The notes below the pieces were generated by a model. That model had not been told where the DNA came from. It was given only the letters and a program-made list of their open reading frames with translations, and ran no database searches. Below, in pieces: positions 9,847 to 58,587 of a DNA stretch of 64,000 nucleotides. Source of the stretch: Candidatus Aminicenantes bacterium (GTDB taxonomy: Bacteria; Acidobacteriota; Aminicenantia; JAMOAD01); contig JAMOVU010000177.1 of assembly GCA_027067555.1 (NCBI GenBank), positions 2,996 to 66,995 on the forward strand, given 5' to 3'. Each line of letters starts with the position of its first letter. The first letter of the stretch is position 1. A program made the translations under genes and the position numbers.

Positions 9847-10815
9847 CTATTTTTTATATATTTTTACGGATTTTTTTAAAATTTCATAGATTTTTTTTCT
9901 TAAAATTGTAGGCTCAATTACCTCAACTTCATTTCCGAATCTCAAAACCTCTCTGATTAACTCATAATTAAAGGTTGATTTAAAGCTTACAATAATTTCA
10001 TCAGAATCCAACTTTTCACACTTTTGTTCCGGATGGAAGATAAGAGTTTCAATAAGATGGGATATGGATTTTGAAAATCTTAACTTTACTTCAAAAAGCT
10101 CTTTTCTTTTATCTGTTAGGTAAATTCCAAAGGATTGGTTGAGAATCTCCTTTATTCTTTTTTCTGAAAAATGATATTCTCCATCAGATTCTAAGACTTT
10201 TGGGTTAAAAATTCTTGAGACAGCATAGGTCCTCAATTGTGAATTTTTTTCGGCTAAAAGATACCAGTTTCCCATGTAATAAATCAGATGCAATGGAGTT
10301 ATTGTGCTTTCTGTTATATTGTCTTTATCAGCAAATACAGAGTAATAATTTATTTTCATTTTTTTGTTTTCGATTATAGCTTTAGCTATTGTTTCAAGTG
10401 CTCCCTCTTTGTTCTTATGAAGTCTTATACCTTTGTATGATACAGAATTGCTTATCTTTTCGAATTCTTCTTCGGAAAAGGAGGTGATTTTCTTTAAAAA
10501 AGCTTTTAATGTTTTTTTTAATTTTTCATCTCTGATTAATTCCTTTAAAATAGCAAAAAGCAAAAGTTCCTCGTTTGATGCCCAGAAAAGTGGTAATTCA
10601 TAATTTTTATCTGCTTCGTCAAAATAGTATCCCTTTCTAACTCTGTCGTATTTTAGAGGTACTTGCAATCTATCTCTCATAAAATCAAGATCTCTTTGCG
10701 CTGTTGATCTTGAAACTTCAAAGTATTCCTGAATATCTGTTGCATTCGGGAATTTCCCATTTTTTACCTCTTCAATAAACCACACAAATCTCTCAAAAGC
10801 TAATTTTTTTGACAT
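9847..10815 (-). CDS. WYL-domain transcriptional regulator (N-terminal wHTH, WYL, WCX)
   Basis: FEVSRSTAQRDLDFMRDRL HTH; TITPLHLIYYMGNWYLLA...RTYAVSRI WYL core; LRFGNEVEVIEP WCX tail. Confidence 0.92.
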   Translation of the reverse strand: MSKKLAFERFVWFIEEVKNGKFPNATDIQEYFEVSRSTAQRDLDFMRDRLQVPLKYDRVRKGYYFDEADKNYELPLFWASNEELLLFAILKELIRDEKLKKTLKAFLKKITSFSEEEFEKISNSVSYKGIRLHKNKEGALETIAKAIIENKKMKINYYSVFADKDNITESTITPLHLIYYMGNWYLLAEKNSQLRTYAVSRIFNPKVLESDGEYHFSEKRIKEILNQSFGIYLTDKRKELFEVKLRFSKSISHLIETLIFHPEQKCEKLDSDEIIVSFKSTFNYELIREVLRFGNEVEVIEPTILRKKIYEILKKSVKIYKK

Positions 10816-36289: not shown

Positions 36290-36305
36290 ATAGAGGAGGT
36301 GTGAA

Positions 36306-36611
36306 ATGTTTAACTATATGAATCCTTATTATTATGGTTTTGGAGGCTTTGGTTGGGGGAGAGGTAGAGGTTTTGGAAGAGGCAGAGGTTTTGGAAGAGG
36401 CAGAGGTTTCGGAAGAGGCAGAGGCTTTGGCTTCGGCAGAGGGTTTGGTTATGGAGCAACACTTGGTTATTGCCCGTGGACTGGCCTTCCAAGAGGTTGG
36501 AGATGGATGGGGTACTATACTCCCTATAATATGCCTTATACAGGAGGGTTTAACTATCCGGTTCCTTATGCTTACAATACACCAACTCCAGTACAGGAGG
36601 AGAAAAAATGA
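36306..36611 (+). CDS. Small Gly/Arg/Tyr-rich protein (DUF5320-like)
   Basis: Strong SD AGGAGG; (GRGRGF)x4, GYCPWTGLPRGWRW; stop overlaps the next ATG. Confidence 0.75.
   Translation: MFNYMNPYYYGFGGFGWGRGRGFGRGRGFGRGRGFGRGRGFGFGRGFGYGATLGYCPWTGLPRGWRWMGYYTPYNMPYTGGFNYPVPYAYNTPTPVQEEKK
36357..36428 (+). repeat. 18-bp coding tandem repeat x4 (GRGRGF)
   Basis: ggRagaggYagaggYttY units with synonymous variation only. Confidence 0.9.
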
Positions 36612-37216
36612 GGATACTCATTACTTCATCAGGTCCTGATTTAAATTCTCCGGTGGATATGAGATTTGCAAGAGCACCTTATTTCATTGTGTATGATAGT
36701 GAGAATCCTGAAAACCCTGAAGTGATTCAAAATCCTTTTATGAATACTCCTTCCGGGGCTGGAGTTGTTGCAGCTCAATTTGTGGTGGAAAGAGGAGTGC
36801 AAGCAGTTGTTTCAGGTGCTTTCGGACCAAACTCTTCTATGATTCTAAGTTCGGCTGGTATTCAAATGATTACTGAGACAGGAGGCGTTTCTGTAAAAGA
36901 AGCTATTGATAAGGCGATAAGTGGGAATTATCCCCAAGGAGTTCCCCAGCAGGCAGCCATGCCAGCTTCTTATTTTCCTCAATACAACCCCTATGGATTT
37001 GGATGGGGATTTGGAAGAGGCTTCGGATGGGGAAGAGGCTTTGGAAGAGGCTGGGCTATGAATTGGGGAACTTTTCCTATAGGAACATATCCCCAAGTTT
37101 ACAATTTTGATGAAAAGAATTTTCTAAAAAATATGATAGATAATCTTAAATCTCAGCTAAATTACTATGAAAAAAGATTGGCAGAGATTGAAAAAAATAT
37201 TAAGGAGGAAAAATGA
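36608..37216 (+). CDS. NifB/NifX-family protein with GFGWGRG tract and C-terminal coiled coil
   Basis: VDMRFARAPYF, GAGVVAAQ, GAFGPN; FGWGFGRGFGWGRGFGRGW; LKSQLNYYEKRLAEIE. Confidence 0.85.
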   Translation: MRILITSSGPDLNSPVDMRFARAPYFIVYDSENPENPEVIQNPFMNTPSGAGVVAAQFVVERGVQAVVSGAFGPNSSMILSSAGIQMITETGGVSVKEAIDKAISGNYPQGVPQQAAMPASYFPQYNPYGFGWGFGRGFGWGRGFGRGWAMNWGTFPIGTYPQVYNFDEKNFLKNMIDNLKSQLNYYEKRLAEIEKNIKEEK

Positions 37217-37770
37217 AAATATTAGTAACTGCAAGCTCTGAAGATTTGAATGGTCCTGTGGATCCTCGTTTCGGAAGAGCAGCTTATTATGTGATTTTTG
37301 ATTCTGAAAACCCTGATGCTGTTCAGATAATTCCTAATCCCAATGCAGCTTCACCAAGTGGAGCGGGTATTGCAGCAGCTCAGTATGTTGCATCTCAAGG
37401 TGTTAACATAGTTGTTTCAGGATCTTTTGGCCCCAATGCCTCATCAGTACTTTCAGGCGCAGGTATCCAGATGGTTTCAGCACCTTCAGGAATGAGTGTA
37501 AGAGAAGCTTATGAGATGGCACTTCAAGGAAAGTTAGGTGCTGCTCCTGCGAATCCGAACGGACAGATGCCACCTTATCCGCCTCAAGGGGGATTTGGTG
37601 GACCGGGCTTCGGCGGAGGCGCAGGTTTTGGAGGCGGTTTCGGAGGTGGATTCGGAAGAGGCCGAGGCGGTGGTTTTGGTAGAGGCAGAGGCCGAGGAGG
37701 CGGTTTTGGAAAAGGTGGAGGAAGAGGCCAAGGCGGTGGCTTTGGCGGTGGTTTTGGTAGAGGCTGGTAG
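37213..37770 (+). CDS. NifB/NifX-family protein with ~60-aa Gly/Phe/Arg-rich tail
   Basis: VDPRFGRAAYY, GAGIAAAQ, GSFGPN; tail GGFGG/GRGRGGGFG. Confidence 0.85.
   Translation: MKILVTASSEDLNGPVDPRFGRAAYYVIFDSENPDAVQIIPNPNAASPSGAGIAAAQYVASQGVNIVVSGSFGPNASSVLSGAGIQMVSAPSGMSVREAYEMALQGKLGAAPANPNGQMPPYPPQGGFGGPGFGGGAGFGGGFGGGFGRGRGGGFGRGRGRGGGFGKGGGRGQGGGFGGGFGRGW
37588..37767 (+). repeat. Low-complexity GC-rich coding repeat (GGFGG/GRGRGG)
   Basis: Imperfect repeated units; locally far higher GC than the flanks. Confidence 0.8.
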
Positions 37771-57546: not shown

Positions 57547-57595
57547 TTTTTTAATGTTTAAAATTAATTCCCTTTTCCCCTATAAAAAATAAGTA

Positions 57596-57669
57596 CGCGC
57601 CCGGAGGGACTCGAACCCCCAACATTTGGATTAGAAATCCAATGCTCTATCCTGTTGAGCTACGGGCGC
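57596..57669 (-). tRNA. tRNA-Arg(TCT); 3' CCA not encoded
   Basis: Acceptor GCGCCCG/CGGGCGC, anticodon stem TTGGA/TCCAA with loop TTTCTAA, T-loop GGTTCGAGTCC. Confidence 0.95.
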
Positions 57670-57682
57670 ATCTTTTTTTTTC

Positions 57683-57757
57683 TCGGGGCGAGTGGATTTG
57701 AACCACCGACCCCCTGCTCCCAAGGCAGGTGCGCTATCCAGGCTGCGCCACGCCCCG
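57683..57757 (-). tRNA. tRNA-Pro(TGG); 3' CCA not encoded
   Basis: Acceptor CGGGGCG/CGCCCCG, anticodon stem CCTGC/GCAGG with loop CTTGGGA, T-loop GGTTCAAATCC. Confidence 0.95.
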
Positions 57758-57769
57758 CAAAAGTCTGTT

Positions 57770-57798
57770 AATATACCATAATTTGACTACTATATCAA
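57770..57798 (-). promoter_or_regulatory. Putative sigma70 promoter of the tRNA-Pro/tRNA-Arg pair
   Basis: Minus strand TTGATA-17 nt-TATATT with extended TG, a few nt upstream of tRNA-Pro. Confidence 0.55.
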
Positions 57799-57837: not shown

Positions 57838-58551
57838 TTATCTTACTATCTCAATCATACCGAAACCATAGCTATTGAGCTGTCCGATACCCCAATCATA
57901 GGCAATTTGAATTATTTCTTTATTACCTGACATGGTAAAGGGTGAAAGCCATGCTTTATACTTTTTCCCCTTAATTTCAACTAATTTTGAAATTTTTCTT
58001 TTTTTTATGAGATAGTTTTTATCAAATTGAATATATAGATGGGATTTTTGAGGGAGTTTTCCATAAATTCTTCTGAATTTTTCAATGAGATTTGTTCTTA
58101 TTAAATTGTAAAATTCACTGTCATGGGGATTTAAAAAAATCTCTTTTTCCTCTTTTTCTTTTGTAATGTATTTTTTGTAAACAGTTATAGGTGAAAGACA
58201 CTTGAATTTATTAATTTCATTATCTGCTTCAAAAGGTGGAAATATAACTGTTTTTTCAATGGTAAGCTCGGTTTCGAACAGAGATATTTTGGGATTGTTT
58301 TTAAAAAAGTTCTCAATTACTTTTATATAGTTTTCGATTGGTGATGTTATGTAAAGAACAATAGGGTTTCTTAGGAAAATTCCTTCATCTGAGATTTCTC
58401 TATTCATTGATCTGAATGGAGAAAAATTAAAGTAAGGCTCTTCAATACCTGCCTTTTTGAGGATTTCCCTTATAAAAAAAGATGTTTCATAAGCCCTTTT
58501 AAAGGGAACAAAGAATCCATTGTCACTTGAGATTTGTATTTTAATCCTCAT
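57838..58551 (-). CDS. cas6: Orphan Cas6-like RAMP endoribonuclease homolog (no array or other cas genes in window)
   Basis: C-terminal Gly-rich loop AYDWGIGQLNSYGFGMIE; KFKCLSPITV; EFYNLIRTNLIEKF; LYITSP; MRIKI N-terminus; 237 aa from ATG 58551. Confidence 0.85.
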   Translation of the reverse strand: MRIKIQISSDNGFFVPFKRAYETSFFIREILKKAGIEEPYFNFSPFRSMNREISDEGIFLRNPIVLYITSPIENYIKVIENFFKNNPKISLFETELTIEKTVIFPPFEADNEINKFKCLSPITVYKKYITKEKEEKEIFLNPHDSEFYNLIRTNLIEKFRRIYGKLPQKSHLYIQFDKNYLIKKRKISKLVEIKGKKYKAWLSPFTMSGNKEIIQIAYDWGIGQLNSYGFGMIEIVR

Positions 58552-58558
58552 TATAATA

Positions 58559-58587
58559 AGGATAAAAATATTTTTTAATATTGTCAA
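58559..58587 (-). promoter_or_regulatory. Putative sigma70 promoter of the cas6-like gene (TTGACA-17-TATCCT), 7 nt before the ATG
   Basis: Perfect -35 TTGACA at 58587-58582, exact 17-nt spacer, no SD before the ATG. Confidence 0.65.

Follow-up and report, generated by a model that had tools for sequence, protein, structure and literature searches.

A solitary, conserved Cas6 homologue of Candidatus Aminicenantes that appears to lack the canonical nuclease centre

Cas6 is the protein that normally cuts CRISPR RNA; as an RNA-recognition module, it is both compact and highly specific, and it is already in use as a tool. In the canonical type I-B/III form (Cas6b; PfCas6 3I4H/3PKM, 5YI6 and M. maripaludis Cas6b), it carries a catalytic histidine in a loop of the form LH.KGY...K.FK and is encoded in a cas operon or beside an array. 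The triad of PfCas6 consists of Tyr31, His46 and Lys52 (PMC3652601), while M. maripaludis Cas6b (MmCas6b) uses a catalytic histidine pair, H38/H40 (PMC3479195). Solitary Cas6 genes, Cas6 enzymes without histidine and a non-catalytic Cas6 paralogue are all known, but separately. TtCas6A (TTHA0078) of Thermus thermophilus is encoded outside every CRISPR locus and acts in trans; it cleaves the repeats R1 and R3 and has an essential His37, with a ~17,000-fold defect in the H37A mutant (PMC3902920). SsoCas6 is an active Cas6 that has no such histidine, with conserved Lys25 and Lys28 in helix α1, plus Lys51 and Arg231 (PMC3652601), which means that loss of the histidine alone does not abolish cleavage. 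A Cas6 homologue described in the literature as non-catalytic is PH0350 of Pyrococcus (PMC3902920). Here, we describe a cas6 homologue encoded on the minus strand of a 64,000-nucleotide stretch of Candidatus Aminicenantes DNA (assembly GCA_027067555.1, contig JAMOVU010000177.1, positions 2,996 to 66,995; hereafter the window). Its features are collected in Table 1; loci of relatives carry L labels and homologous protein sequences P labels. What appears to be new is a bacterial, deeply conserved and solitary Cas6 clade in which the catalytic loop has been deleted. Literature searches on Cas6 proteins that are orphan, stand-alone or non-catalytic, and on CRISPR in Aminicenantes, returned no description of this clade and no CRISPR counts per lineage, and a 2022 review of CRISPR exaptations lists no solo Cas6 (PMC8730458).

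By profile and by fold, the window protein is a Cas6, as the initial annotation had proposed from its letters alone. It matches the Pfam family PF01881 (Cas_Cas6_C; 2e-31, 109.9 bits against a cut-off of 23) and the NCBIfam family TIGR01877 (cas_cas6; 5e-30, 105.4 bits against a cut-off of 58.65), and its best profile is the PADLOC Cas6b model PDLC01782, matched over the full length at 1.2e-39. An AlphaFold2 (AF2) model, built from a 14-sequence alignment, has a predicted local distance difference test (pLDDT) score of 92.7 and a predicted template modelling (pTM) score of 0.89. It consists of two tandem ferredoxin/RRM domains of the β-α-β-β-α-β type, the RAMP fold expected of a Cas6. When the model was compared with the PDB by Foldseek, the top matches were all Cas6 structures (5yi6, 3ufc, 3qjj and 3i4h/3pkm) with template modelling (TM) scores of 0.78-0.86, and of 0.82-0.86 for 5yi6, 3ufc and 3qjj; the canonical type I-B/III proteins, which represent the parent family, lie at 0.78-0.83.

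The two motifs on which the initial annotation had relied, the glycine-rich loop GIGQLNSYGFG and KFKCLSPITV, are both present and are conserved in the clade, with G221, G223, N226, G229 and G231 of the loop invariant across 10 members. A further motif, SP[FL]RS[MI]NRE, is specific to the clade and conserved in its alignment. The second RRM contains a basic β-hairpin (FDK.Y..K.KISKL...K.K.W) in which K178, K186, K189, K197 and K199 are invariant, and the model places its strands at residues 188-193 and 196-201. We infer that this conserved hairpin forms an RNA-binding surface. The isoelectric point (pI) of the window protein is 9.46, and that of the clade is ~9.3, compared with a median of 9.2 in 134 canonical homologues.

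The most striking difference from the canonical family lies in the first RRM. Between helix α1 and strand β2, 13-16 residues are missing in all ten clade members. Here, the nearest canonical homologues have a segment of the form '[FLY]LH[ED]KGY..(..)K.FK[LM]FTFS', which in the window protein is reduced to 'GIEEPYFNFS'; the Cas6 proteins in the PDB likewise carry an insertion at this junction relative to the clade. In a 144-sequence alignment (10 clade and 134 non-clade sequences), the α1-β2 segment measures 19-21 residues in the clade versus mostly 34-37 elsewhere, and a histidine occurs there in 126 of the 134 homologues outside the clade but in no clade member. The shortened, His-less segment noticed in the single window sequence is thus a property of the whole clade. 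The remaining members of the triad are affected too, since the position equivalent to Tyr31 of PfCas6 is R, K, M, Q or S, and the one equivalent to Lys52 is P, R, K or G. No histidine is invariant across the clade, and the best-kept one, H143 in 'NPH', is replaced by tyrosine in the most distant member. The N-terminal Cas6 model of Pfam, PF21350, matches canonical relatives but no clade member.

Judging by these alignments, the PfCas6-type Tyr/His/Lys centre is lost in all clade members, and a Cas6b-type histidine pair is absent as well. What is left is a Cas6 fold from which the catalytic residues are missing, as in a non-catalytic paralogue. Helix α1 contains no invariant basic residue in the clade, which leaves nothing there to fill the role of SsoCas6 Lys25/Lys28. 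Taken together, the conserved hairpin and the deleted loop suggest that RNA binding has been retained and canonical cleavage lost; an alternative catalytic site may exist.

How does the clade compare with the known exceptions? Its best sequence matches in the PDB are the Pyrococcus paralogues PH0350 ('PhCas6nc', 3QJJ/3QJL/3QJP) and P. furiosus 3UFC, to which the clade profile aligns over the full length (2.5e-21 for 3ufc, 1e-18 for 3qjp). In fold, too, they rank among the best matches to the model (TM 0.85-0.86), and they share with the clade the two-RRM Cas6 fold, the G-rich loop and a 'PHD' motif. PH0350 reportedly binds repeat RNA, according to the original structure papers. However, the Pyrococcus paralogues are only 23-26% identical to the clade, and they are archaeal proteins from genomes with CRISPR-Cas and a catalytic Cas6, whereas the clade is bacterial and apparently single-copy. 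They also keep a longer α1-β2 segment with a histidine (SPHG[YF]WTFS), where the clade has the loop deleted. The position of the clade among bacterial Cas6 of the I-B type makes it probable that the centre was lost independently of the Pyrococcus paralogues. TtCas6A resembles the clade gene in sitting away from CRISPR loci, but it keeps its active-site histidine, where the clade has no conserved one, and it matches the model weakly (TM ~0.57). SsoCas6 (SSO1437, 3ZFV; SSO2004, 4ILL), like the clade, does without the 'essential' histidine; the positions equivalent to its Lys25 and Lys28 vary in the clade, and it is structurally distant from the model (TM 0.53-0.60).

The clade is small and well separated. 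It comprises about ten sequence clusters, and its named members come from metagenome-assembled genomes of Aminicenantes. A search of 5.8 billion proteins returned eight clusters at 47-96% identity, followed by a drop to at most 37%. HMMER, run against 1.84 billion representatives, found only two sequences with E<1e-30, P0005 (58%) and P0015 (42%), below which a gap opens between scores of 191 and 112 bits. Maximum-likelihood analysis unites the ten sequences in a monophyletic group, with a support of 98 in the Shimodaira-Hasegawa-like approximate likelihood ratio test (SH-aLRT), that is nested among Cas6 proteins of the I-B/III type. The GTDB representative genomes that carry the gene are titled Candidatus Aminicenantes, with the exception of one titled Clostridia. 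This locus, L012 (CAZWJH010000003.1), encodes a 97% identical Cas6 and is syntenic with the window, yet bears the title 'uncultured Clostridia bacterium'; since Aminicenantes is the title of every other carrier, the bin was probably given a wrong taxonomic label. DNA of the window is present in hydrothermal-vent metagenomes.

One further homologue, P0062 (L032 7886-8671), groups near the clade, with an SH-aLRT of 90 for the wider group. The 261-residue protein likewise has no histidine in its α1-β2 segment, and its gene is solitary, with a ParA-like gene, a subtilase and PTS genes as neighbours. Solitary, His-less Cas6 genes of this kind may therefore extend beyond the Aminicenantes clade. Two possible sister sequences, P0049 and P0074, lie on contigs so short that they say little about gene surroundings.

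Every clade gene that we placed in its genomic surroundings stands alone. The initial annotation had noted neither an array nor another cas gene in the window, and dedicated scans agree: Tandem Repeats Finder (TRF) and a k-mer array scan detect no CRISPR array in its 64 kb, and PADLOC finds no core cas gene besides cas6 among its 65 open reading frames (ORFs). Nor was an array or core cas gene seen in ~4.5 kb beyond the window, or arrays or cas genes within ±10 kb in six other clade contexts. The k-mer scan does detect the arrays of L018 and L026, which served as positive controls. These arrays (L018 8719-9661 and L026 18748-20745) lie by outgroup Cas6 genes and have 30-nucleotide repeats ending in GAATTGAAA[TC], which is the classic 8-nucleotide handle of types I-B and III. 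Seven of nine outgroup Cas6 loci have an adjoining Cas3, Cas7b or WYL regulator, or an array within 10 kb, whereas the clade gene lies outside CRISPR-cas loci, as does that of TtCas6A, at all loci examined.

In all, the gene is solitary in seven distinct contexts. In the window and its closest relatives (L012, L030 and L035; at least 97% identity), it is flanked on one side by rubrerythrin-like, LOG-like, MBL and OmpA genes and on the other by tRNA-Pro, tRNA-Arg, FAA hydrolase and CitMHS genes, which agrees with the tRNAs and ferritin-like gene of the initial annotation. L001 and L013 (84%) keep the rubrerythrin side but have sugar epimerases downstream. In L004 (58%), the neighbours are an M23 peptidase and M16 peptidases; in L008 (57%), a TPR gene, a small ORF and M16 peptidases; in L007 (51%), acyl-CoA dehydrogenase/ETF and an S41 peptidase. 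L010 and L016 (47%) place the gene with ribH-nusB and a DHH phosphoesterase, and L028 (42%) with a Xer-like recombinase and SAICAR synthase. Because the neighbours differ between lineages, the solitary state is old.

Purifying selection on the cas6 genes of the clade is strong. The ratio of nonsynonymous to synonymous substitution rates (dN/dS) is 0.016 between the window and L012 (dS ~1.2), 0.031 between L004 and L015, 0.063 between L001 and L013, and 0.13 between L004 and L008. The ORF is intact in every copy read; these copies span over ten assemblies and identities as low as 42%. Between the window and L012, Cas6 is 96.6% identical, and ten of eleven neighbouring proteins are 82-98% identical (the eleventh, at 51%, is a truncated ORF match). 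The GC content of the gene follows that of its host, with 29% in hosts of 30-33% and 49% (66% at third codon positions, GC3) in a host of 57%. Searches of viral contigs and plasmids yielded no copy, and an origin from either finds no support.

The start of the gene deserves comment, as it bears on how the protein is expressed. The minus-strand ORF 57838..58587 reads through uninterrupted, as the initial annotation had stated, but its TTG at 58587 does not hold as a start codon, since it is the first half of TTGACA and hence part of the -35 box. Instead, the ATG at 58551 is used in the public gene call (237 residues). It is backed by the Pfam, TIGR01877 and PADLOC matches, which all begin at its methionine (residue 13 of the longer ORF in the Cas6b alignment), and by the N-terminus MR[ILA]K of every relative. 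The initial annotation was right about the promoter itself, a TTGACA-17-TATCCT element whose -35 box does not differ among the eight lineages compared. The ATG lies 7 nucleotides past the end of the -10 box, and there is no Shine-Dalgarno sequence, unlike in the divergent rubrerythrin-like gene, where AAGGAGAG precedes the start. We thus predict that the cas6 mRNA is leaderless. The -10 box is 6-8 nucleotides from the ATG in the window, L001, L013, L004, L008 and L028, whereas the L007 and L016 orthologues have mRNA leaders.

Two public gene calls among the relatives differ from this picture. The 84% orthologue (L001 10001-10012, L013 9989-10000) is called four codons early (MLIMMRIKI), from an ATG inside the -10 box TATGCT; the sequence suggests that the methionine of MRIKI is likely the true start. 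For P0015, the call begins at a GTG, but translation from an ATG further upstream gives the family N-terminus MRLKV.

No RNA sequencing runs containing the window's own sequence were found. The wastewater orthologue in L016 (47% identical), on the other hand, occurs in many RNA sequencing libraries and is covered at ≥99% identity by contigs from four metatranscriptome runs. As these contigs may include DNA and hold no strand information, they support its expression only moderately.

Table 1. Features of the cas6 locus in the window (position 1 is the first nucleotide of the window)
Feature	Position	Strand	Remark
Stand-alone cas6 homologue, coding sequence	57838..58551	-	237 aa + stop; start ATG 58551 (MRIKIQ...)
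Glycine-rich loop G221-G231 (GIGQLNSYGFG)	57859..57891	-	RAMP/Cas6 signature, nearly invariant
Basic β-hairpin of second RRM, ~residues 177-201 (DKNYLIKKRKISKLVEIKGKKYKAW)	57950..58023	-	conserved in clade
α1-β2 junction, residues 33-41 (KAGIEEPYF)	58429..58455	-	shortened; site of canonical His/Lys loop
Sigma-70-type promoter TTGACA-17-TATCCT	58559..58587	-	10/12 matches
tRNA-Pro(UGG) + tRNA-Arg(UCU)	57595..57757	-	downstream neighbours, outside the feature
Extended -10 promoter TTGATA-17-(TG)TATATT	57770-57798	-	directly upstream of tRNA-Pro(UGG)/tRNA-Arg(UCU)

What could such a protein do? A maintained protein that acts in trans or has been re-purposed fits the pattern, and a decaying remnant does not. 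We give a little less than an even chance to the reading that the clade represents a Cas6-derived RNA-binding protein without the canonical nuclease centre that has been exapted to a non-CRISPR RNA. This reading draws on the housekeeping-like rate of evolution, the long residence in each host, the consistent solitude and the complete loss of the triad, and we lean slightly towards a non-CRISPR host transcript as the target. The initial annotation had likewise suggested a domesticated or trans-acting Cas6. It is partly borne out, by the true Cas6 fold, the lost triad, the solitary and selected gene and the retained promoter. A connection with the tRNAs is not supported, as tRNA genes are neighbours only in the lineage of at least 97% identity.

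In the scenario of exaptation, the gene would derive from a type I-B/III cas6 that became detached from any cas operon. Deletion of the loop, together with substitutions, would have removed the PfCas6-type Tyr/His/Lys nuclease centre, after which a few Aminicenantes lineages would have retained the gene in the chromosome as a single copy, apparently by vertical inheritance. The protein would still bind RNA in a sequence-specific manner, through the conserved basic hairpin and the groove between the two domains, and would hold or chaperone the bound RNA without cutting it by the canonical mechanism. As the target would be encoded elsewhere, it would act in trans. A more specific version of this scenario is possible, although we would sooner doubt it than rely on it: a domesticated solo Cas6 that has left CRISPR immunity, is constitutively expressed, mostly from a leaderless mRNA, and has a cellular RNA unrelated to CRISPR as its target, which it would chaperone, regulate or process with a new active site.

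Several points weigh against exaptation. Only a handful of clusters among 15 billion proteins make up this rare family, and the clade Cas6 is therefore not a core gene of the class. No candidate target RNA emerged from the repeats of the window, from Rfam or from the flanks: the window contains no dispersed repeat resembling a CRISPR repeat and no Rfam family besides tRNAs, the flanks of the clade genes share no motif beyond the promoter, and the short repeats 3' of cas6 in L013 are unremarkable. The evidence from RNA runs consists of the assembled contigs described above, with the same caveats of possible DNA and missing strand information. The closest solved relatives, the Pyrococcus paralogues, come from CRISPR-bearing organisms. 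Some Aminicenantes possess arrays, and a CRISPR spacer has connected an Aminicenantes host with a virus (PMC7490370). Finally, there are precedents for a stand-alone Cas6 that serves distant arrays (TtCas6A; PMC3902920) and for a Cas6 that is active without histidine (SsoCas6; PMC3652601).

These latter points lend themselves to a different explanation, in which the protein is a trans-acting CRISPR factor for arrays elsewhere in the genome, which may or may not come with a cas6 of their own. It would either process their repeats through an alternative active site independent of histidine, similar to SsoCas6, or serve as a non-cutting chaperone, regulator or loader that binds them, like the non-catalytic Pyrococcus paralogues. 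We regard this as a serious possibility that falls somewhat short of even prospects. TtCas6A illustrates that a solitary Cas6 can be active (PMC3902920), SsoCas6 that a His-less one can (PMC3652601), and the spacer that ties an Aminicenantes host to its virus implies CRISPR in the group (PMC7490370). The best matches of the clade in both sequence and fold are the Pyrococcus paralogues 3ufc and 3qjj/3qjp, and the window encodes, at a distance of 48 kb, a WYL-WCX regulator that shares 30% identity with WYL regulators located next to canonical Cas6 genes. Yet none of the seven independent contexts is near an array or a cas gene, and the clade Cas6 evolves as slowly as its housekeeping neighbours while its GC content tracks the host. 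In our view, this is unusual for defence genes, which turn over horizontally. His-independent processing in the manner of SsoCas6 is further countered by the loss of Tyr, His and Lys together and by an α1 helix that has no conserved Lys or Arg to take the part of Lys25 and Lys28.

The WYL-WCX regulator is itself worth recording. It is encoded at 9850-10815 on the minus strand of the window (322 residues; Pfam WYL 4e-15, WCX 2e-12), near a tadA-like deaminase, MerR, tRNA-Pro(GGG) and SurE. It matches the CRISPR-associated WYL models of PADLOC (1.8e-29), and over its full length it shares the 30% identity with the WYL gene directly 3' of a canonical Cas6 gene at L019. The protein may have a generic regulatory function, or it may be the second gene to survive from a lost I-B locus.

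A third explanation holds that the gene is a functionless remnant of a recently decayed type I-B cas locus, drifting towards a pseudogene. Solitary cas genes are often remnants, and the catalytic residues are indeed lost; even so, we consider this explanation highly improbable. At a dN/dS of 0.016-0.13, with synonymous sites near saturation, the gene is not drifting, and its ORF and promoter are conserved in the copies compared. The spacers that flank the window cas6 are only ~126 and ~80 bp long and leave no room for cas debris. The combination of tiny intergenic spacers and strong selection led us to reject a decayed cas operon at this locus.

Equally improbable is a factor linked to tRNA processing that acts on the transcript of the downstream tRNA-Pro and tRNA-Arg. 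The tRNA genes start 80 bp downstream of cas6 in the same orientation, and the interval that separates them from it showed no terminator. However, they have their own extended -10 promoter and follow cas6 only in the window and L012, with L030 belonging to the same lineage of at least 97% identity, and none of eight other clade loci scanned has a tRNA gene within 10 kb. A functional tie to the ferritin-like (rubrerythrin) gene was rejected as well, because synteny reaches down to 84% identity only and the neighbours at 58%, 57%, 51%, 47% and 42% are unrelated to the rubrerythrin locus.

Elsewhere in the window (36300-37770, plus strand), three consecutive ORFs encode Gly/Arg/Phe repeats of the GFGRGRG type, in units of 12, 18 and 24 nucleotides. 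They sit in a local GC peak of 42% against ~32%.

If the clade works outside CRISPR, as we slightly favour, it would be a clear example of one Cas protein being re-purposed for the RNA biology of its host, and a source of a naturally nuclease-dead Cas6 whose specificity is new. Should it serve distant arrays instead, the clade would be the bacterial equivalent of the non-catalytic Cas6 paralogues of Pyrococcus, which are little understood. In that case, it would lend weight to the notion that RNA recognition and chaperoning are as important to the function of Cas6 as cutting is (PMC3652601).

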